The notes beneath the pieces are model-generated. The model made no database searches and had not been told where the DNA came from. It was given only the letters and a program-made list of their open reading frames with translations. From a virus (taxonomy: Duplodnaviria > Caudoviricetes), in the IMG/VR virus record IMGVR_UViG_3300044652_000032, positions 31,183-95,182 of that record: DNA of 64,000 bases, one strand, 5' to 3'. Both the position numbers and the translations under genes were made by a program. The stretch's first letter is position 1; each line of letters opens with the position of its first letter. Below, in pieces: positions 49,025-61,109 of this stretch.

Positions 49025-49708
49025 GTGAGACAGATGAAGAAGGACAAGACGTTCATAGGCTTCGTGTTGGACCGCAGCGGGAGCATGGAGTCCATCCGCG
49101 ACGACACCATCGGCGGGTTCAACGCCTTCGTCGAGGAGCAGAAGAGGGTGGCGGGCGAGTGCACGATGACGCTCCTTCAGTTTGACGACCGATTTGAGAC
49201 GCCGTTCGCCGACCAGCCCATACACAAGGTGCGCCCGCTCACGCGCGACAGCTACGTTCCGCGCGCCAGCACCGCACTGCTAGACGCCATTGGCAAGATG
49301 ATTACGGAGACGGGCGCGCGGCTCAAGGCTCTGCCCGAAGACGAGCGTCCGGAGAAGGTCGTCATCGTCATCCTGACCGACGGCTACGAGAACGCGAGCC
49401 GCGAGTACACGGCGGCGAGGATCAACGAGATGATCGCGCACCAGCGCGACGTGTACCGTTGGGAGTTCACGTTCCTCGGTGCGAATCAAGATGCCATCAC
49501 GAGCGCCGCGGCGCTCGGCATACCCGCGCACTCCTCGGTTTCGTTCGCGTCGTCGGGCGCGGGCGTGAGCAACGTCGTGCGATCTATGTCCGCGAACATA
49601 GCCTCGTACCGCTTCGGCACGTCCGCCAACGTCAGCTACTCGGACGAGGATCGCGATGCAGCCATGTCCGACGCCGACGAGCAGTGGGCCAATTCGTCGT
49701 CCAAGTAG
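49025..49708 (+). CDS. von Willebrand factor A domain protein
   Basis: MIDAS DRSGS, TALLDAIG, ILTDGYENAS. Confidence 0.9.
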   Translation: MRQMKKDKTFIGFVLDRSGSMESIRDDTIGGFNAFVEEQKRVAGECTMTLLQFDDRFETPFADQPIHKVRPLTRDSYVPRASTALLDAIGKMITETGARLKALPEDERPEKVVIVILTDGYENASREYTAARINEMIAHQRDVYRWEFTFLGANQDAITSAAALGIPAHSSVSFASSGAGVSNVVRSMSANIASYRFGTSANVSYSDEDRDAAMSDADEQWANSSSK

Positions 49709-50048: not shown

Positions 50049-50465
50049 ATGCCACACAAACAGTCAGATGCGACGCCGCCCACGGCCATGCTGCCCTTTA
50101 TGGAGCAGGAGCGCGCGGTGGACTACGCCGACGCCGACCGCAAGGCCGCGAATCCGTCGGGGTACGCTGCCACGAAGCCGAGCCGTCCGGCCTTCCCCGG
50201 CCCCGCCTACCGTGAAGAGTTCGACTACGAGCGGCTGACGGGGCAGATGGCGGCGGTGTACCGCGTGATGAAGGACGGGCGCAAGCGGACTATTCGTGAG
50301 GTGCGCGACGAAGTAGGTAAAGGCTCGGAGACGGGAATAGCGGCGGCAATACGCGCCTTGCGCAAGCCGGAGTACGGCTCGCACCGTATTGAGAAGGAGC
50401 GCGTGGGCGACCCGCGCAGCGGATTGTGGGCCTATTACATGATAGTGGAAGGAGAGAAAGCCTGA
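50049..50465 (+). CDS. Winged-helix protein
   Basis: VYRVMKDGRKRTIREV...SETGIAAAIRALRK. Confidence 0.6.
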   Translation: MPHKQSDATPPTAMLPFMEQERAVDYADADRKAANPSGYAATKPSRPAFPGPAYREEFDYERLTGQMAAVYRVMKDGRKRTIREVRDEVGKGSETGIAAAIRALRKPEYGSHRIEKERVGDPRSGLWAYYMIVEGEKA

Positions 50466-51598
50466 TGGAGTTTTCAATAAAGAGAGACAACCTGAGTCGT
50501 GAGCTGGGCGCGCTGGCAGCCGTCCCTCTCAAGAACTCGCCGCTACCGATCCTCGAGTGCGTGCACATCGAGGCGCTGGCCGGGCACCGTTTGCGGCTGA
50601 CGGCCACCAGCCTGCAGTCCACGCTGACCTGCGAGGTGCAGGCCGACTCCGTCGTGGAGGAGGGTGCCGTGTGCGTCACAGTCCGGCGACTGGCCGACCT
50701 CGTGCGGCTGATGCCCGAGGGGCTGCTCACCGTGAGCACGGACGCGCAGGACTACCTCGTGGTCAAGGGCCAGCGCAGCCGCCACCGTCTCCCCGCCATG
50801 AGCGCGGACGCTTGGCCGCCGCAGGCCGTGCCCGCCCCGGACGCACTGTGGACGGAGGTGCCCGCCGGACGGCTCCGCGCCTTGCTCAAGGGCGTGGAGT
50901 TCGCCGTCGCCCCCGAGGAGGACAGCAAGTTCAACCTGCGCGGCGTCAAGATGGAGATAGAGGGCAATCGGATGCGGATGGTGGCCACGGACGGCCACCG
51001 TCTATCGATGGCCGAGTCGGGGCTGGACGTGCTGACGCTGGCGGACGCCGATGTGCTGGTGCCGGAGCACGGCACGCAAGACCTCGCGCGTCTGCTGGGC
51101 GACGAGGAGCCTGAGCAGATGGTAGGCGTTGCGGCGTCGGCCAACAAGCTGTTCTTCCGCGCCGGAGCGCGCCTGCTGGCCGTCACGCTGCTGGTGGGCG
51201 AGTTCCCGGAATACCGTGGCATCCTCAAAGAGTACGGCAAGTACACGTCGGCGGCCAACTTCCCCGCCGACGACCTCAACGGTGCCGTCAGGCGCGCGCT
51301 GTTGGCTGCGGACGGCAAGAGCGCTGCGGTGCGCTTCCGCTTCGACGCCGGCATGCTGGTCATAAGGGCGCAGACGCAGGAGAGCGGCGAGGCCGAGGAG
51401 TTCTTGGTCTCGGACTGGACGGGCGAGGACGGCGCGCACCTCTCGGTCAACGCCAAGTTCCTTTTGGAGTTCCTCTCGGCGGTGCAGGACGTGCGCTGGG
51501 AGTGCGGCGGGCCGCGCGACGCCCTCCACCTCGTCGGCACGAACAAGGAGGGTCTGCAGGTGCGGTATGTGCTCATGCCGCTGGACGTTCCGGAATAG
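50465..51598 (+). CDS. dnaN: DNA polymerase sliding clamp (beta subunit)
   Basis: LPILECV, MVATDGHRL, GEFPEYR, NAKFLLEFL, YVLMPL; 377 aa. Confidence 0.93.
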   Translation: MEFSIKRDNLSRELGALAAVPLKNSPLPILECVHIEALAGHRLRLTATSLQSTLTCEVQADSVVEEGAVCVTVRRLADLVRLMPEGLLTVSTDAQDYLVVKGQRSRHRLPAMSADAWPPQAVPAPDALWTEVPAGRLRALLKGVEFAVAPEEDSKFNLRGVKMEIEGNRMRMVATDGHRLSMAESGLDVLTLADADVLVPEHGTQDLARLLGDEEPEQMVGVAASANKLFFRAGARLLAVTLLVGEFPEYRGILKEYGKYTSAANFPADDLNGAVRRALLAADGKSAAVRFRFDAGMLVIRAQTQESGEAEEFLVSDWTGEDGAHLSVNAKFLLEFLSAVQDVRWECGGPRDALHLVGTNKEGLQVRYVLMPLDVPE

Positions 51599-51605
51599 GA
51601 GGCTG

Positions 51606-52031
51606 ATGATGACGCTGGAGATAACGGCGGAGAGCGCGGGGCCGGACGTGGACGCCCTCGTCCACAAGCACGTGATGGGCGTCGTGGTGGACGAGGCGCG
51701 CTGCCGCGAGTGCGGGTGGTACATGGCCGAACGCCCCGAAGAGGGGTGCGTGCCCGGCAACTGCAGTATGCGCCCGAAGCCGTGCGGCTACGGCCAGCCT
51801 CCGCCCTACACGGCAGACCTGCGCCTCGACCACGAGGTCTTGAAGCACGTGACCGCGACGTGGGCGTTGGAGCAGCGGGCGCTATTCTGGACGGCGCTGG
51901 AGCAGAGTCTGTACGCACGTATGGGCCTCGGCAACTTGAACGAAGCCTTCGCGCCACTGCCCTTGATCAGCTACTATCAACCGGGCGACTTTTCACGGGC
52001 GGCACTCCGAGCCTTAGGAAAAAACGAGTGA
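51606..52031 (+). CDS. Phage ABA-sandwich-like protein
   Basis: AGPDVDALVHKHVMG...PPYTAD...SRAAL. Confidence 0.5.
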   Translation: MMTLEITAESAGPDVDALVHKHVMGVVVDEARCRECGWYMAERPEEGCVPGNCSMRPKPCGYGQPPPYTADLRLDHEVLKHVTATWALEQRALFWTALEQSLYARMGLGNLNEAFAPLPLISYYQPGDFSRAALRALGKNE

Positions 52032-53389
52032 GCCAGCAGAGCACAGAACTGGAGTGGTACGGGTGCTTCGACCGCCCGTGGGCGCGCGACCGCGATATCG
52101 TGGCCGAGGCATTCGCGCACCCGGCGAAGTACGCGCGCAACCTCATCTTCAAGATTTACGAGCACGCCCACGCCAAGAACTGGCTCCGTGCAGGAGATTC
52201 GGTACTCGACCCCTTCGGCGGAGTGGCCATGGGCGGGCTGCCCGCCTACCTGCTCGGCGCACACTGGACGGGCGTGGAACTCGAAGAGAAGTTCGTGCGT
52301 CTGGGCGAGCGCAACATCCAGTTGTGGATGGGCCAGTACTCCATGCTCGGCACGGTCGGCTCGGCAAGGTTGCTGCGGGGCGACTCCCGCTGCCTGTTGG
52401 ACGTTATCGGCAACGACTACTCGCTGGCAGCGAGTAGTCCTCCTTACACCGCCAACGTCAAGGGCGACTACGACCCCGAAGGCCGTGACGATCGCCGCGA
52501 AGCTGAGCAAGGGCGCGGCTGCTTCCGAGGCAGCGAGAGTTATGGCGAGTCCGAGGGGCAGATGGGGCGCATGACCGAAGGCGACTTCGGTATGGCGGTA
52601 AGTTCACCGCCATACAACGGCGACGCCGAATCGGGTGAGCGCCACCGCGAACGCGAGGAGCGTCGTGCGGCTGTGGGGCACCGCAATAGACTCGATGAAA
52701 ATTCGTCCGGCGGTTTTAACGGCGGCAGGGATTACGGCACGGAGGGTGGTCAACTCGGGACGATGTCGGAGGGGTCGTTCAGCGCCGCCGTGTCGAGTCC
52801 GCCGTATGCCGACGGCTGCCGGCACACGGGAGGCGAGGACACAGCCCCCGCGCACATCGAGGGGAGCAAGACTACGGCGTACGGTGCCGACTACGGGGTG
52901 GCGATTTCATCGCCACCCTACGATAAGAGCGGGACGCACCCTAATCTAGTTAAGGACGACGAGTGGGGCAAAGCCGGAAGCGATATCATGGCGCGTCAGC
53001 CGGAAGATCGTCGCGAGGGCTACGTCGGTTCGGAGGGGCAGATGGGCGGAGCCGACGACTTCTGGAGCGCTGCGCGCCTCGTGCTGGAGCAGACCTACGC
53101 CGCGCTGAAGCCCAACGGCCACGCCATCTTCGTCTGCAAGCGTTACGTCCGTAACCGTGAGATTGTGGAGTTCCCGCAGCAGTGGGCCGAGCTGTGCCGC
53201 GCCGTGGGCTTCAAGGACGAGTGCTGGCACCGTGCGTGGTTCACGCGCGAGCACGGCACGCAGCTCGGCTTGCTCGGCGAGGATAAGGAGATCCGCACGC
53301 AGAAGAAGTCGTTCTTCAGGGCGTTAGCCGAGAAGCACGGAAGCCCCAGAATTGACTGGGAAGACGTGATGTGTTTTAGTAAGGATTGA
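52028..53389 (+). CDS. Amino (N4-C/N6-A) DNA methyltransferase with four tandem SSPPY modules
   Basis: HPAK, VLDPFGG (motif I), GVELE, GDSR, SSPPY x4, LKPNG. Confidence 0.85.
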   Translation: MSQQSTELEWYGCFDRPWARDRDIVAEAFAHPAKYARNLIFKIYEHAHAKNWLRAGDSVLDPFGGVAMGGLPAYLLGAHWTGVELEEKFVRLGERNIQLWMGQYSMLGTVGSARLLRGDSRCLLDVIGNDYSLAASSPPYTANVKGDYDPEGRDDRREAEQGRGCFRGSESYGESEGQMGRMTEGDFGMAVSSPPYNGDAESGERHREREERRAAVGHRNRLDENSSGGFNGGRDYGTEGGQLGTMSEGSFSAAVSSPPYADGCRHTGGEDTAPAHIEGSKTTAYGADYGVAISSPPYDKSGTHPNLVKDDEWGKAGSDIMARQPEDRREGYVGSEGQMGGADDFWSAARLVLEQTYAALKPNGHAIFVCKRYVRNREIVEFPQQWAELCRAVGFKDECWHRAWFTREHGTQLGLLGEDKEIRTQKKSFFRALAEKHGSPRIDWEDVMCFSKD

Positions 53390-53411: not shown

Positions 53412-54176
53412 ATGAGTACGAACGTAGAGCAACCGAAGCAGGGCACGCTGGCTCTCAACGTCGAGGTCAAGTCCGCCAAGGACTTGAAGTTCAAGGAAAA
53501 CAACACGCGCCTCCACGATAAAAAGAATCTGGAGGCGATAGAGAAGTCCGTGGAGGAGACGGGCTTCAACCGCAGCATCTTCATAGACGAGGACGGCACG
53601 GCACTGGCCGGTAACGGCACGCTGCAGATAGCGCAGAAGCGCGACGCCAAGGTCATCATCGTTGACGTCGAGGACGAGAACACGGTGGTGGCCGTCCGCA
53701 AGCGCGGAATGACCCCGCTGGAGAAGGAGCGCGCCGGGCTGTGGGACAACCGTGCGTCCGATTTGAGCAAGAACGACAAGAAGGCGATTGCCCGTCTCAC
53801 GCAGCAGCAGCCCGCGCAGATGCTGCTCGGCGGCATCTTCACCGAGAAGGAGCAGGAGAAGCTGCTCAAGGCGCAGGCCGACGCCCTGCCCCTCGGCGCT
53901 GGCGGCAAGGACGACGCCGAGCGGGAGACGCAGAACGCGGCGGTGCGCGGCGACAGCACTGTACGCATGGTCAGTCTCTTCCTGACGACCGCCGAGGGCG
54001 AGCTGAACCACGGCGACTTCGTCCGGCGGGTGCGCGCCCTGCAGTCCTCGCTCTTCCCCGAAGCCAAGACCATTACGGACGCCGTCGTGGCGATAGTCAA
54101 CCGCGCGCGCGACGAGTGGCTGCGTAAGGACTCGGAGGAGAACGTCGCCGCCGAAGCGGAAGGCGCGGCTGTCTAA
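53412..54176 (+). CDS. ParB/Srx-like domain protein
   Basis: NTRLH...IEKSVEETGF..SIFIDED..ALAGNG. Confidence 0.75.
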   Translation: MSTNVEQPKQGTLALNVEVKSAKDLKFKENNTRLHDKKNLEAIEKSVEETGFNRSIFIDEDGTALAGNGTLQIAQKRDAKVIIVDVEDENTVVAVRKRGMTPLEKERAGLWDNRASDLSKNDKKAIARLTQQQPAQMLLGGIFTEKEQEKLLKAQADALPLGAGGKDDAERETQNAAVRGDSTVRMVSLFLTTAEGELNHGDFVRRVRALQSSLFPEAKTITDAVVAIVNRARDEWLRKDSEENVAAEAEGAAV

Positions 54177-54188
54177 GGGAGGCACGGG

Positions 54189-55160
54189 ATGCGTACTATT
54201 ACGGTAGAGGCGGCGTTGACCGACCGCGAGTGCGAGGCGCGGCTGGGTACCTTCGTTGACGAGCACGACTACGACCACGTTGTCACGGGCGAGAGCGTGA
54301 CGGTGCTCAAGCCGGACGGACGACCCTTGCTCGTGTACGTGCACGACGTTTTGCCCCGCTCGCTGTGCGAGGCCGCGTTCGCTGTCTTCAAGACCGTGGA
54401 CTATGAGGGCGGCGGGAGCAACCGCGGGTACGCCTCCGGCATACTGACGAACGATGACCTCGACCGCACGGAGGGTGCACCCGACACCGTCCTCATCCGC
54501 GAGGGGAGCACCCGCTACGTCAAAATCAAGCAGGACGGCACCGTCAGCAACACGACGCGCGCAGCGGACAGCCCTACGGCCATCGTCGGCTACTTCGACC
54601 GCGCCGCGCGTTTCCCCTACTGCCGCCAGACTGCCTTTACGATGGAGAACCCGGAGCGCTGGGCCGAGGCCGTCCCGTTCATCCGCGCTGTCAGTGAAGT
54701 CTTCCGTAACTACGCCCCGGAGCAGTACGAGGCGCAGCGCCAGTTCGTGGAGATGTGCCACCCCGACTTCATCATCCCCGGAACAATCTTCTCGACGCTG
54801 ACGCTCAACCGCAACTGGACTACGGCAATTCACAAAGATTCCGGAGATTATTCCTCCGGATTAGGCTGTATGTCCGTCCTTCATGCCGGCGAGTACACGG
54901 GCGGCCTGCTGTGCTTCCCGAAGTACAAGGTGGCGGCGGACATGCGCACCGGAGGAGTCCTGCTCGCGGACGTACATGAGGCCCACGGCAATACGAAAAT
55001 CATCGGTGTACCGGGGCGTCACCTCCGCCTCTCCTGCGTCTTTTATGCACGCACCAACATTATAGAGTGCGGTTCGATGGAGTTCGAGCTGGAGCGTGCC
55101 AAGCGCGTGGGCGACCGTCTGGCAACCGAACACGCCACGGAGCAGCCCAAGTTATTCTGA
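54189..55160 (+). CDS. TET/JBP-family 2OG-Fe(II) dioxygenase
   Basis: GYFDR...CRQTAF, FSTLTLNRN..TAIHKD (HxD), DVHEAHGNT, RLSCVFY. Confidence 0.88.
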   Translation: MRTITVEAALTDRECEARLGTFVDEHDYDHVVTGESVTVLKPDGRPLLVYVHDVLPRSLCEAAFAVFKTVDYEGGGSNRGYASGILTNDDLDRTEGAPDTVLIREGSTRYVKIKQDGTVSNTTRAADSPTAIVGYFDRAARFPYCRQTAFTMENPERWAEAVPFIRAVSEVFRNYAPEQYEAQRQFVEMCHPDFIIPGTIFSTLTLNRNWTTAIHKDSGDYSSGLGCMSVLHAGEYTGGLLCFPKYKVAADMRTGGVLLADVHEAHGNTKIIGVPGRHLRLSCVFYARTNIIECGSMEFELERAKRVGDRLATEHATEQPKLF

Positions 55161-55861
55161 TGCAAAAGACAATCATGCCAGAGCTAACGGTGGACAGACG
55201 CACCGGACTCGTAATTCGGAGTGACCCCGCCTTCCACGACCGCGAGATACTCCGCGAGGTGCGCCACGCCTACCGCAGCGTGCCCGTCCGCCTCGACGAC
55301 GTCATACTCGATCTCGGCGCACACATCGGGGCCAGCGCCTGCTTCTTCGTAGGGCAGGGTGCTCGCCGCGTCGTTGCGGTGGAAGCCAGTCCCGAAAACT
55401 TCGCGCTGCTCGAGCGCAACGCCGAGGGCTGCGCCATCCTTCCCATACACGCCGCCGTGAACGACGACGGATCGCCTGTCACCTTTCACCTCCATCCCAA
55501 GGGCCACGCTGCGATGAACAGCGTGGTGCCGAGTCGCCGACCGCACCGCGAAGTGACGGTGCCCGGCGTGGCGCTGGATTATCTGCTCACGACTTACGAG
55601 CCGACCGTGCTCAAGATGGATATCGAGTGGGCAGAGTACGGACTCTCCGCGCTGCATCGTCTGCCCGACCGCGTCCGTGTTATAGCCGCTGAACTGCACA
55701 TGCTCATGTGGGGTACGAACGAGCGGCGGGAGGAGGCACAGCAACGCGGCTTGGCCTTAGAGGAATCCTTCCTGCGGCAAGGATTCCGATCCTTGTGGCG
55801 CGAGGAGAAGCGCGGACGCTGGAATAGGGTGTACGCCGTATGTGGGACATACGAACGATGA
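55160..55861 (+). CDS. FkbM-family SAM methyltransferase
   Basis: ILDLGAHIG, VAVEA.PEN, LKMDIE.AE. Confidence 0.88.
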   Translation: MQKTIMPELTVDRRTGLVIRSDPAFHDREILREVRHAYRSVPVRLDDVILDLGAHIGASACFFVGQGARRVVAVEASPENFALLERNAEGCAILPIHAAVNDDGSPVTFHLHPKGHAAMNSVVPSRRPHREVTVPGVALDYLLTTYEPTVLKMDIEWAEYGLSALHRLPDRVRVIAAELHMLMWGTNERREEAQQRGLALEESFLRQGFRSLWREEKRGRWNRVYAVCGTYER

Positions 55862-56865
55862 CTATGACGGTTGACCACTGGAAGGGCTTCGTGGACTTCG
55901 CTCGGCTGGACAAGGCGGCGGGCGGCCCCGACTCGCATATGAAGACGGTGGTGCATCTCTCGCACGACGTCTCCGTTGAGGAAAAGGTGTGGCGTGCGGG
56001 GCTGTACGCCGGAACGGTTTACAACGTACCGACTGCCGAGGTTCTTTGGCAACACTGGCCGTGGCACCGCGTCCGTCACATAGACGGGCTGGCGGGGCTG
56101 GAAGCGTGGATAAAGACAAACTGGGACGGCTTCGGCTTCCGCCGCGAGCGGCGTGCCGTCCGCTCCCCGGCCAAGATGGCCGAGAACATCCGTTCGTTGC
56201 GCGACGCGGTGACGGATATCGTCCGGGCGCTGGAGCGCGGGGCGGATTACGGCGGGGTGTGGGACGCGTGCTCACGCGTGAAGTACGTGGGGCGCTACGC
56301 TCTGCTGAAGATGACGGAGACGCTGCGGCAGATGCGGCTGACGGACGCCATAATTCCCGACCTGCGTCCGGAGGGGGGCTGGTCGCCGCGCGAGGGCTTG
56401 AGCCTGTTGTGGACGGATTCTGCGTCCGTGGCGCTCCTCACAGCCGACGGGCCGGACACCGCCGAGCGCCTCCACCGTATCAACCACCTCGCCGCCTCCA
56501 CACAGCACCGCATAGCCGCCGAGTACGGGGTGGAACTGGACAACTACGAGTTCCAAGTCTTCTGCTGCGACTACAAGCAGGCGTGGGCCGGACGGCAGTA
56601 TCCCGGACGCTCCCTCGACTCCGAGCTGGAGTACGCCGCCAAGGTCTGCTCGCACCCTTGGGCCGGGGACTTCGCGCTGGGGATGTGGGAGGCGCGCGCA
56701 GCGCTCTTCCCCGCATGGTCGTTGGGCGAGCGGCAGGGGTGGTCGGGCGTGCGCCCGGAGTTGGGCGAATGCTGGCGACGGCATGGTTATCTTTGGGATG
56801 GTAGTTCCTATGACTACGTTACTACTAGGTCTCTCGCTGAACCGGAGCGGTATGCGGCTGTATAA
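55858..56865 (+). CDS. Amino acid:DNA transferase / aGPT-pyrophosphorylase-like (HhH glycosylase fold)
   Basis: VGRYALLK..E, CDYK, QYPGRSLD, WEARAALFP...GE motifs; context of TET and kinase. Confidence 0.7.
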   Translation: MTMTVDHWKGFVDFARLDKAAGGPDSHMKTVVHLSHDVSVEEKVWRAGLYAGTVYNVPTAEVLWQHWPWHRVRHIDGLAGLEAWIKTNWDGFGFRRERRAVRSPAKMAENIRSLRDAVTDIVRALERGADYGGVWDACSRVKYVGRYALLKMTETLRQMRLTDAIIPDLRPEGGWSPREGLSLLWTDSASVALLTADGPDTAERLHRINHLAASTQHRIAAEYGVELDNYEFQVFCCDYKQAWAGRQYPGRSLDSELEYAAKVCSHPWAGDFALGMWEARAALFPAWSLGERQGWSGVRPELGECWRRHGYLWDGSSYDYVTTRSLAEPERYAAV

Positions 56866-58671: not shown

Positions 58672-59238
58672 ATGAGCGACGAACTGTGGATGCAGACGGC
58701 CAACGGGCGCAAGTTCCCGCTGTTGGATCCGCGCCCCGAGCACGTCTTCGCCGACGACATTATCTCGGCGCTGCCGCTGATACCGTGCTTCACTGGCGCG
58801 CAGAAGGCCGGAAAGTGGGACTGGCCGTACAGCGTAGCGCAGCACTGCACTCTGGTCTCGCGGCTGGTAGCACCCGAGCTGGCGCTGGACGCGCTGCTGC
58901 ACGACGCGTGGAAGGTTTACGTCGGCGACCTCACGCGCCCGCTCAACCACCTGCTCAACGACATCAGCAACGGACGCTGGGGCGACGTCCGCAACCGCAT
59001 CCGTCAGGCCGTGGCCGTGCGGTTCGGCGTTCGATGGCCGCTGCCCGACGCCGTGGAGGAAGCCGACCGACTGGCGCGTGCCATAGAACTGCGCGACGTT
59101 ATGCCCAAGGTGCCGGAACTTTGGGACTTAGTGCTACCGGATCCGCCCGCCAACCGCGACATCTTCGTCTGGTCGCCCGATACGACTCGTAAGACCTTCG
59201 CCGCACGCTGGCGTGAGTTACAGCCGGAGATATTTTGA
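58672..59238 (+). CDS. HD-domain 5'-deoxynucleotidase (YfbR-like), atypical active site
   Basis: YSVAQHC, LLHDAWKVYVGD, EADR. Confidence 0.8.
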   Translation: MSDELWMQTANGRKFPLLDPRPEHVFADDIISALPLIPCFTGAQKAGKWDWPYSVAQHCTLVSRLVAPELALDALLHDAWKVYVGDLTRPLNHLLNDISNGRWGDVRNRIRQAVAVRFGVRWPLPDAVEEADRLARAIELRDVMPKVPELWDLVLPDPPANRDIFVWSPDTTRKTFAARWRELQPEIF

Positions 59239-61109
59239 TGCAGCTATCCTTACTGACCAAGCCCGCTCCCACGCCCGACGCCGCGCCGCGTTGGCAACCG
59301 CCGCGCACGCTTCCGTCGTTGCAGGGTGTCAAGCGGATTTCTTGGGACTGTGAGACGTCAGGACTGAATCCCTTCAGCGACCGTGCGGTCGGTTTCAGTC
59401 TGGCACTGCGTCGCGGCGGGGATGTCGAGCAGCACTACTTGCCCGTGGGGCACAGCGAAGGCAACCTGCCGCTGGCGCTGGTGCAGGAGTGGGCGGCGCG
59501 TGAGCTGCCGGGTAAGGACGTCGTCTTCGCCAACGCAAAGTTCGACGTGCATTTTGCGCTCCGCGCCGGTATAGACTTTGAGGCCATAGGCGTCCGCCCG
59601 CACGACGTCGCCTTCAAGGATGCTCTGTTGGACGACGAGCGCGTCGCGGGGCACGGCCTCGACCAGATGGCGGCTCGCTACTGCGGCGAGGGCAAGATGC
59701 CCTTCCCCGGCGCGCACATGGACGCCATGCCCTCGTGGCGGGTTGCGCCCTACGCCATGCACGACGCCCGCGTGACGCTGCTCGTGGACGAGGCTACGGA
59801 TCCGCTGATACGCGAGCAGGGTCTGGAGCGGGTGTTGGCGCTTGAGGACGCGCTCATCTACTGCACCTGCCATATTGAGCGGGTAGGCTCGCGAATTGAC
59901 GTAGAGAAGTTGGACAGGTGGCGACGTGAAGCTCATCAGGCGTTGGAGGGATGTCTGTGGCAGCTGCACAGCATGACGGGGCTGCAGATTAACCCCACCA
60001 GCCCCGAAGACCTTATGCGCCTCTGCCGTCAGACGGGCGTACCTATCCCGAAGGAACGGACGGGGGCAACGGCGCGTCACCCGCAGGGGCAGGTCAGCTT
60101 CACGGACGAGGTGGTGGAACGCCTTGCCGCCGGTAACCCGGCATTCGCCGTCGCGTTGCGCGCCCGCCGCGTAAAGAGTCTGCTGGTCAAATTCTTGGAC
60201 AAGTTCTGGGACTCGCTGGACGGTGACGTACTTCGCGCGCAGTACCACCAGATGAAGACCGATGACGAGTCGGGCACGGTCTCGGGGCGCTACTCCTCCG
60301 CGGGAGGCGGTGCGGAGGACAACGGTTACAGCTTCAACGCGCAACAGACAATCAAGCCCTCGGCGCAAAAGAAGGACGGCACGGACAGGTGGACAATCCG
60401 CCGACTGTTCATCCCCGCCGACGGGATGCGGTACTTCGCCGTGGACGCCAAGCAGATTGAGTACCGATTGTTCGGCCACTTCGCCGGAGCGCAACGCATT
60501 ATAGACGCCTACAACAACGACGAGCTGACCGACATGCACCAAGTGGCCACCGATATCGCGGCACAGCACGCACCGCAGATGGCCGCGCAGTGGGGCGCGA
60601 AGTTCCGCGACCACGTTAAGAACGTCAACTTCGCCCGGCTCTACGGCGCGCGGCCCAAGAAGATAGCCTCCATGCTGGGCATTACCGAGCGGGACGCCGA
60701 AGCGTTCGTCGCCGTGCTGGACAAGGTCTTCCCCGAGGCCGCGCCCTACCTGCGGCGCAAGGCTGCCGAGGCGGAGCAGCGCGGCTTCGTCACCACGCTG
60801 CTGGGACGCCGCGCCCGCTTCACCAGCGAGCAGAACCGGCGCGGCACGCACTCGGCGGTGAACAGAGTCATACAGGGTACGGCAGCCGACCTCATGAAGT
60901 TGAAGATGCTGCGGGTGTACAACGAGCGCAAGACGCTGGGCATTACGGCCATCCGCCAGACCATCCACGACGAGCTGGACGGCGACGTGCTGCCCGACCC
61001 CGTGTACGAGCGGCGGATGGCGGAGTGCTTCGCCGTGCAGGAGGTCAAGCTCAAGGTGCCTCTGGCGTGGTCGTTGGCTCTTGCGGATAACTGGTTGGAG
61101 GCGAAATGA
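59238..61109 (+). CDS. polA: Family A DNA polymerase with 3'-5' exonuclease
   Basis: DCETSGL, NAKFD, YAMHD; DAKQIEYR, KNVNFARLYG, NRVIQGTAAD, HDE. Confidence 0.95.
   Translation: MQLSLLTKPAPTPDAAPRWQPPRTLPSLQGVKRISWDCETSGLNPFSDRAVGFSLALRRGGDVEQHYLPVGHSEGNLPLALVQEWAARELPGKDVVFANAKFDVHFALRAGIDFEAIGVRPHDVAFKDALLDDERVAGHGLDQMAARYCGEGKMPFPGAHMDAMPSWRVAPYAMHDARVTLLVDEATDPLIREQGLERVLALEDALIYCTCHIERVGSRIDVEKLDRWRREAHQALEGCLWQLHSMTGLQINPTSPEDLMRLCRQTGVPIPKERTGATARHPQGQVSFTDEVVERLAAGNPAFAVALRARRVKSLLVKFLDKFWDSLDGDVLRAQYHQMKTDDESGTVSGRYSSAGGGAEDNGYSFNAQQTIKPSAQKKDGTDRWTIRRLFIPADGMRYFAVDAKQIEYRLFGHFAGAQRIIDAYNNDELTDMHQVATDIAAQHAPQMAAQWGAKFRDHVKNVNFARLYGARPKKIASMLGITERDAEAFVAVLDKVFPEAAPYLRRKAAEAEQRGFVTTLLGRRARFTSEQNRRGTHSAVNRVIQGTAADLMKLKMLRVYNERKTLGITAIRQTIHDELDGDVLPDPVYERRMAECFAVQEVKLKVPLAWSLALADNWLEAK

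Follow-up and report, generated by a model that had tools for sequence, protein, structure and literature searches.

Several Bacillus phages (SPR, phi3T, rho11s and H2) encode multispecific C5 cytosine methyltransferases in which one core carries tandem modules of ~40-60 amino acids (aa) that differ between the phages and recognise one target each; these modules are recognition domains only, and a single catalytic loop serves them. A second group of reference enzymes is the beta class of amino-methyltransferases (PF01555, with SPPY, SPPF or DPPY as motif IV), here represented by TTHA0409 from Thermus thermophilus (PDB 2zie/2zif/2zig), M.PvuII (1boo), CcrM (6pbd) and N4-cytosine methyltransferases (8s9m/8s9n), which have in common an HPAxF...DPFGG segment, a GD motif III and a strand followed by a SPPY-type motif IV. 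CcrM touches its target DNA through the loop that follows DPPY. Finally, two-frame protein switches have been engineered by 'alternate frame folding': duplicated segments compete for one slot in the fold, and the unused copy loops out. Here we compare with these systems a methyltransferase gene located in a 64,000-nucleotide stretch of DNA (the window), corresponding to bases 31183-95182 of a complete 95,182-bp record of an uncultured Caudoviricetes virus, with direct terminal repeats (IMGVR_UViG_3300044652_000032). Its product (P0001) is most likely a phage orphan S-adenosylmethionine (SAM)-dependent methyltransferase for exocyclic amino groups with DNA as substrate, and it contains four tandem copies of a strand, catalytic motif and variable loop, which we call cassettes.

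One core and four copies of motif IV

The open reading frame (ORF) at 52028-53389 contains motif I once (VLDPFGGVAMGG, aa 59-70; core DPFGG) and the motif IV pentapeptide SSPPY four times, at aa 136, 192, 256 and 294 (nucleotides (nt) 52433, 52601, 52793 and 52907), in agreement with the first-pass annotation of the window, which had placed four motif IV copies next to one motif I at ~52433, 52600, 52793 and 52907. Each copy sits after a hydrophobic strand. The three variable loops said to end in a linker were likewise recovered, the linkers reading Y-x4-G-Q-(M/L)-G at aa 172-180, 236-244 and 332-340, and cassette 3 is of a short type without linker. As the chance frequency of SSPPY is ~1e-7 per position, four copies in one ORF cannot be due to chance. 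The four copies are written in different codons (AGTAGTCCTCCTTAC, AGTTCACCGCCATAC, TCGAGTCCGCCGTAT and TCATCGCCACCCTAC), and a DNA-level tandem repeat or recombination substrate in the gene was considered and discarded: Tandem Repeats Finder finds none, and the longest direct repeat returned by a repeat finder spans 34 nt at 79% identity. The different codons, together with the lack of a DNA-level repeat, indicate that the motif is old and held by protein-level selection rather than copied by recent duplication or gene conversion.

The relationship to the beta class was evident from several comparisons. PF01555 matched at 30.4 bits (cut-off 26.7; 4.8e-7) between aa 29-93 and profile positions 160-219, so that the profile is aligned solely via its C-terminal 60 positions, and to the N-terminus of the protein. 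PF00145, the core of C5 methyltransferases with their Pro-Cys catalytic motif, had no match in the protein or in the whole 95-kb phage. Searched against solved structures, the family profile matched TTHA0409 most closely (3e-12), followed by CcrM (2e-7), two N4-cytosine methyltransferases, M.PvuII (9e-6) and DpnA, and it aligned GDS..L..(strand)SPPY to TTHA0409 and M.PvuII. In these alignments the N-terminus of the protein faces the C-terminal HPAxF...DPFGG of the beta class, while its motif IV region faces the beta-class N-terminus. This swap indicates that the protein is a circular permutation of the beta-class order, running X-I-II-III and then IV-VIII; the usual order (IV-VIII, target-recognition domain, X-I-III) is absent, with motif I preceding all motif IV copies (aa 136-298). 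Also in contrast to the beta class, the protein has no separate target-recognition domain, and its motif IV unit occurs four times, with a loop of 20-45 aa inserted between SPPY and YG..GQLG. Apart from the cassettes, no variable region able to serve as a target-recognition domain was found, the termini being highly conserved in the family. Residues invariant in the family alignment A1 include H31, P32, A33, K34, D61, F63 and G65 in the HPAKY and motif I segment and F345, W346, K371, F430 and E445 in the C-terminal half of the core.

The closest relative also suggests what the repeated unit is. TTHA0409 follows its motif IV with Y..TPGQLG, reading SPPYW..KRYEDTPGQLG and then helix D, that is, one unit with a minimal loop. 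The unit repeated here is therefore the ordinary segment of beta4, motif IV and active-site loop, lengthened between SPPY and YG..GQLG by a long stretch of variable sequence, and TTHA0409 appears to represent the single ancestral unit. Methylation of an exocyclic amino group, as in PF01555 enzymes, would be expected. SPPY is the catalytic motif of most N4-cytosine methyltransferases, and its change to APPA abolishes formation of N4-methylcytosine (4mC) (PMC8885841). The protein resembles these enzymes in having SPP(Y/F) rather than D/NPPY, in its case as four SSPPY, and the motif thus favours N4-cytosine as the probable target, with N6-adenine as the other candidate.

An AlphaFold2 model built with a 71-sequence alignment of four-cassette members had a mean predicted local distance difference test (pLDDT) score of 72.9, with residues 1-145 and 341-453 above 90 and residues 146-340 mostly below 50. 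The modelled core has all seven strands of a class-I Rossmann methyltransferase, with ~30 residues ahead of the fold; the cassette 1 strand (131-136) is seated as beta4, and the rest of the array forms an insertion after it. Its best structural matches are Trm14 (Z 19.6, rmsd (root-mean-square deviation) 1.9 over 173 residues), TrmN (Z 18.8) and Trm11 (Z 18.6). These tRNA N2-methylguanosine (m2G) methyltransferases (Trm11, Trm14 and TrmN; PDB 6zxv, 3tlj, 3tma) resemble the protein in fold (Z 18.6-19.6, rmsd 1.9-3.0 over ~175 residues), in the order of motifs from I to IV and in having a motif IV of this kind, (D/N)PPY. They differ from it in that motif IV occurs once; the phage protein lacks a THUMP domain and reaches only 15.8 bits with TIGR01177 (cut-off 316.55). 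Structure prediction, by which the first-pass annotation had proposed to check its reading of one Rossmann core serving several modules, gave a partial answer: the core is complete and cassette 1 is seated, while cassettes 2-4 were not confidently placed.

Conservation and turnover of cassettes across the family

Judging from sequence searches, the methyltransferase belongs to a large, mostly viral metagenomic family without a name. An exhaustive search of representatives at 50% identity returned 2,323 relatives of 326-900 aa at E<=1e-3, of which 967 remained at E<=1e-30; a word-indexed search returned more than 1,292, the best non-self matches being 35-43% identical. Family cores are only ~45% identical. 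IMG/VR viral contigs contributed 101 relatives, and others were found in contigs of metagenome-assembled genomes (MAGs) of Phycisphaerae, Pirellulales, Nitrospirales, Desulfobacterales and Chloroflexota (among GTDB genomes, on MAG contigs only). There was no tblastn match among 50,697 GenBank phage records. In the ESM Atlas the protein is placed among viral 'DNA methylase domain' clusters with PF01555 and, less often, PF01170.

The number of units varies widely, as the first-pass annotation had proposed to look for in homologues. Counting xSPP[YFW] in 248 retrieved family proteins, we found one protein with a single motif, 10 with two, 55 with three, 90 with four, 45 with five, 21 with six, 10 with seven, 12 with eight and 3 with nine to eleven; relatives therefore range from 1 to 11 cassettes, usually 3-5 with a mode of 4. 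Protein length in the same set follows ~268 + 57n, where n is the number of motifs (r = 0.84). The consensus of the unit is Y-G-x-T/S-x-G-Q-L-G-x-M-P/K-E-G-x-F-D-A-A-V/I-S-S-P-P-Y/F followed by the variable loop, and the strand ahead of the motif (consensus F-D-A-A-V/I) is hydrophobic and canonically beta4-like across the family. A query with a cassette-1-only sequence gave eight matches, the shortest of which (312 aa) is a truncated multi-cassette ORF. Some family members carry extra small domains, as indicated by P0245 (532 aa), with a C-terminal CxxC...CxxC zinc-ribbon-like extension and two middle cassettes reading SSAPF instead of SSPP[YF], and by P0210, with a Cys-rich N-terminal extension.

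Two counts address the conservation of each catalytic motif. In the first, xxPP[YFW] was sought within 22 residues of a linker, which makes the count non-circular: the motif was present after 763 of 855 linkers, and its second residue was Ser in 757 of the 763. In the second, slots were defined loosely and sorted by position, and those reading SPP[YFW] were scored as intact; this was the case for 282/291 first slots (96.9%), 612/652 middle slots (93.9%) and 287/291 last slots (98.6%). The first motif is degenerate in nine members (e.g. SSLPY, SSRPY or SSPPH) and the last in four, and their other motifs are intact. In P0210, a relative of P0189, the first unit is lost altogether, and the lone SSPPW is preceded by a YG..GQLG linker as in middle cassettes; an AlphaFold model of this protein has the strand at that motif (240-245) as beta4 of a complete core, an arrangement which indicates that a 'non-first' cassette can be the only catalytic strand. 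Across the family, the array has no end that is uniquely indispensable, and selection maintains each copy of the catalytic motif.

The loops, on the other hand, vary in kind. From 324 non-identical proteins of the family we excised 1,333 cassettes; clustering of 1,311 loops gave at least 129 sequence types, which cover 79% of these loops. Duplicates of a type within one protein were rarer than expected (17 observed vs 34.0 +/- 5.5 in 2,000 label shuffles). Loop types occur at first, middle and last positions, both orders were seen for 34 of the 37 type pairs that frequently co-occur, and 308 proteins displayed 291 distinct cassette arrays. For pairs of proteins whose core identity is 90% or more, the Jaccard index of cassette types averages 0.33, only about a third of the types being in common. 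For example, P0030 and P0103 have cores 99.5% identical and carry 5 and 4 cassettes respectively, with the breakpoint within the conserved linker, and P0025 and P0090, with cores 96% identical, have no typed cassette in common. Cassette content thus turns over much faster than the core. In composition the loops are rich in Asn, Ser, Thr, Gly, Asp and Gln, poor in hydrophobic residues and charge-neutral. A clamp-binding or DNA-mimic role of the loops was considered and dropped, as the linker is not of the QL[SD]LF type and the loops are charge-neutral.

Overall, conservation extends to each single unit, and the loop types belong to a pool common to the whole family, within which they are shuffled, gained and lost. 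The idea that each cassette is a specificity module appears well supported by this comparison: the loops, proposed at first pass as exchangeable specificity elements, sort into discrete types that are seldom repeated in one protein, are not confined to any place in the array and have been exchanged between proteins whose cores are almost identical. The further suggestion of a 'recombinationally tunable' enzyme holds on an evolutionary time scale and fails for a rapid switch, since the gene is without DNA repeats to drive one.

The locus and its neighbours

The methyltransferase gene lies within a co-directional, tightly packed gene block (Table 1). Its GTG start (52028) overlaps the stop of the upstream 154-aa ORF (GTGA), which suggests translational coupling of the two; AGGA lies 10 nt upstream, and homologue alignments to the protein begin at residue ~6-10. 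Directly downstream, a ParB/Tet_JBP/FkbM/ADDT operon occupies 53412-56865 and extends to ~58194. Judged by its gene content, this operon matches a ParB-dependent thymine hypermodification pathway of the kind published for phage T-dioxygenases (PMC13229309). A functional link of the family to this operon was rejected: none of 80 related viral loci had relatives of the operon genes by tblastn. Similarly, no Tet_JBP domain was found in 50 related viral records, 23 of which have a completeness of 90% or more, the phage's own genome serving as positive control (2.3e-25). The association of the methyltransferase with a thymine-hypermodification operon is peculiar to this phage, in whose genome no other PF01555 or PF00145 methyltransferase was found.

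No conserved neighbour of the family methyltransferases was found across related viral loci. Their usual neighbours are generic phage replication genes (VapE, DnaB, HNH, DUF5131) and C5 DNA methylases. In 9 of 80 viral loci, a PF00145 C5 cytosine methylase gene lies no more than 5 kb away from the family member (e.g. L013:8178-9323), indicating that some such phages combine the cassette enzyme with ordinary methyltransferases. A relative of the phrog_7371 protein encoded upstream in the window was seen ~6 kb downstream of a family methyltransferase in L047.

Table 1. Features of the methyltransferase gene and its surroundings (window positions).
Feature	Position	Strand	Remarks
227-aa protein, phrog_7371 (unknown function)	49025-49708	+	7.9e-68
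Block of KfrA_N-like small DNA-binding protein, then sliding clamp	50049-51598	+	KfrA_N match below Pfam cut-off
DNA polymerase III beta sliding clamp, phage-encoded	50426-51598	+	gene annotation
154-aa ORF with Cys-rich stretch CRECGW...C..GNC....C	51567-52031	+	no Pfam or PHROG match
Putative cassette-array amino-methyltransferase gene (P0001)	52028-53389	+	453 aa; translated part 52028-53386
HPAKY (aa 31-35) and motif I VLDPFGGVAMGG (aa 59-70), sole SAM-binding site	52118-52237	+	aligned to C-terminal HPxxFP...DPFxGxG of TTHA0409, CcrM and M.PvuII
Motif III LLRGDSR (aa 115-121), end of beta3, single copy	52370-52390	+	G118, D119, S120 invariant (alignment A1); model strand 112-117
Cassette 1: strand YSLAA, SSPPY 52433-52447, type 5 loop (..GRGCFRGSE..), linker YGESEGQMG	52418-52567	+	modelled beta4, strand 131-136, pLDDT >90
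Cassette 2: strand FGMAV, SSPPY 52601-52615, 59-aa loop of no recurring type, linker YGTEGGQLG	52586-52759	+	pLDDT <50
Cassette 3: strand FSAAV, SSPPY 52793-52807, short type 1 loop (ADGCRHTGGED..), no GQLG linker	52778-52891	+	type 1: 53 occurrences in 53 proteins
Cassette 4: strand YGVAI, SSPPY 52907-52921, GHPSLG..NDNWG-like loop, linker YVGSEGQMG	52892-53047	+	loop clustering (component 3)
C-terminal core half: helix D (DDFWSAAR..), beta5-beta7, conserved KSFFRxLAExxGSPRIDWE	53054-53386	+	pLDDT >90, aa 341-453
ParB-like protein	53412-54176
Tet_JBP dioxygenase	54189-55160
FkbM methyltransferase	between Tet_JBP dioxygenase and amino-acid:DNA transferase
Amino-acid:DNA transferase (ADDT, PF18724)	55840-56865
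Family-A DNA polymerase with 3'-5' exonuclease	59235-61109

How the cassettes may be used

The comparison supports one Rossmann core combined with several complete units of beta4 strand, SPPY and variable loop. From this we infer alternative seating of the tandem cassettes in one core, with several specificities obtained from one gene, which is our leading explanation and one that we put forward tentatively. Each unit would be a self-contained catalytic strand plus target-recognition loop; one unit at a time would be seated between beta1 and beta5, and the others would loop out as flexible segments. Such seating is topologically possible, since the Gly/Asp/Asn-rich neighbours on either side of any cassette can loop out. 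A population of molecules, or one molecule over time, may in this way methylate several different targets and so shield the phage genome from several restriction systems of the host. A more far-reaching formulation, to which we give somewhat less credence, is that of a natural alternate-frame enzyme whose core folds around any cassette to yield several DNA specificities, and whose cassettes phages shuffle for new protection spectra.

Several points weigh against alternative seating. All family members come from metagenomes or MAGs. We infer the DNA substrate and the target base from family membership and the motif only, and the best structural matches are tRNA m2G enzymes. AlphaFold2 seats only cassette 1 confidently (strand 131-136 as beta4, pLDDT above 90) and leaves cassettes 2-4 below 50 (residues 146-340 mostly so); this counts only weakly, as the alignment is uninformative there, the cassettes not being positionally homologous. 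Degenerate motifs are slightly commoner in middle cassettes (6.1%) than in first (3.1%) or last ones (1.4%), which could reflect a somewhat weaker constraint. Finally, to our knowledge no natural enzyme exchanges its central beta-strand, and unfolding and refolding to swap that strand could be costly.

The last three of these points, namely the confident placement of one strand, the low degeneracy of terminal cassettes and the want of a natural precedent for central-strand swapping, are also those that recommend the alternative which survives best. Here only one cassette would ever be catalytic (the first, as modelled, or a terminal one), and the enzyme would have a single specificity. The remaining cassettes would be flexible accessory segments that might grip DNA, bind the flipped or a neighbouring base, tune affinity or processivity, or mediate oligomerisation. 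We consider this unlikely, though a serious contender, because it leaves unexplained why accessory segments should keep a full catalytic half-site (a buried-type strand, S-P-P-Y/F and YG..GQLG) at 94% integrity, why first, last and middle units draw on a common pool of loop types, and why there are still members whose first unit is degenerate or deleted, or whose last unit is degenerate.

Two further alternatives appear improbable. The cassettes could all be used in trans, in a strand-swapped oligomer where protomers complete each other's cores with their cassettes and active sites are mixed. The conservation and shuffling on which alternative seating rests would fit this equally, and the beta-class relatives CcrM, M.RsrI and M.MboIIA act as dimers; however, the protomers all have cassettes of their own, so that no core is vacant. 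We regard as similarly doubtful a substrate other than DNA, in which case the enzyme would methylate RNA (m2G-type) or proteins (Gln/Lys) and its cassettes would recognise different RNAs or proteins. The structural likeness to Trm14, TrmN and Trm11, weak TIGR01177 matches and the co-annotation of PF01170 in the nearest ESM Atlas clusters point in that direction, whereas the sequence matches favour DNA enzymes (PF01555 above its cut-off; TTHA0409, CcrM, N4-cytosine methyltransferases, M.PvuII and DpnA), no THUMP or other RNA-binding domain is present, the TIGR01177 score is far under its cut-off, and the usual neighbours in the family are phage replication genes and C5 DNA methylases. It is very improbable that the extra cassettes are functionless debris of slippage or duplication in a tolerant surface loop. 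The modelled disorder of the region and the abundance of Gly, Asn, Ser and Asp in its loops suggest such an origin, but it agrees poorly with the conservation data and can hardly be maintained in view of 94-99% motif integrity despite core identity of ~45% and diverged codons, loop types conserved across hundreds of proteins and the depletion of within-protein duplicates.

A tandem layout of SPPY, DPPY or NPPY cassettes was not found described in the full-text literature, and the nearest published concept is that of the multispecific Bacillus phage C5 methyltransferases. Like them, the enzyme described here is a phage orphan with one core and a tandem array of modules, which in its family are shuffled and non-redundant; it differs in belonging to another enzyme class (no PF00145) and in repeating the catalytic strand and motif in every module. 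By this analogy, it would be the amino-methyltransferase counterpart of the Bacillus phage enzymes. In mechanism it would resemble alternate frame folding, several copies of a segment competing for one slot, but in nature and with up to 11 frames. New here are a four-cassette member in a complete phage, beside a thymine-hypermodification operon and with cassette 1 seated in a model, the position-resolved conservation of the motif, and natural variants with a single cassette or with a degenerate first or last one.

Should a single cassette do all the catalysis, the others are nevertheless strictly conserved, which points to a further role for a look-alike of the catalytic site. Should several be used, the enzyme would be the first one known in nature to select among copies of a buried catalytic strand, and multispecificity would be encoded in a single small gene in a new way. 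The conserved loop types, more than 100 in number, would then provide a ready library of recognition modules for engineering 4mC and N6-methyladenine (6mA) methyltransferases and for epigenetic tools, and the use of several cassettes would account for the escape of many uncultured phages from multiple restriction systems.

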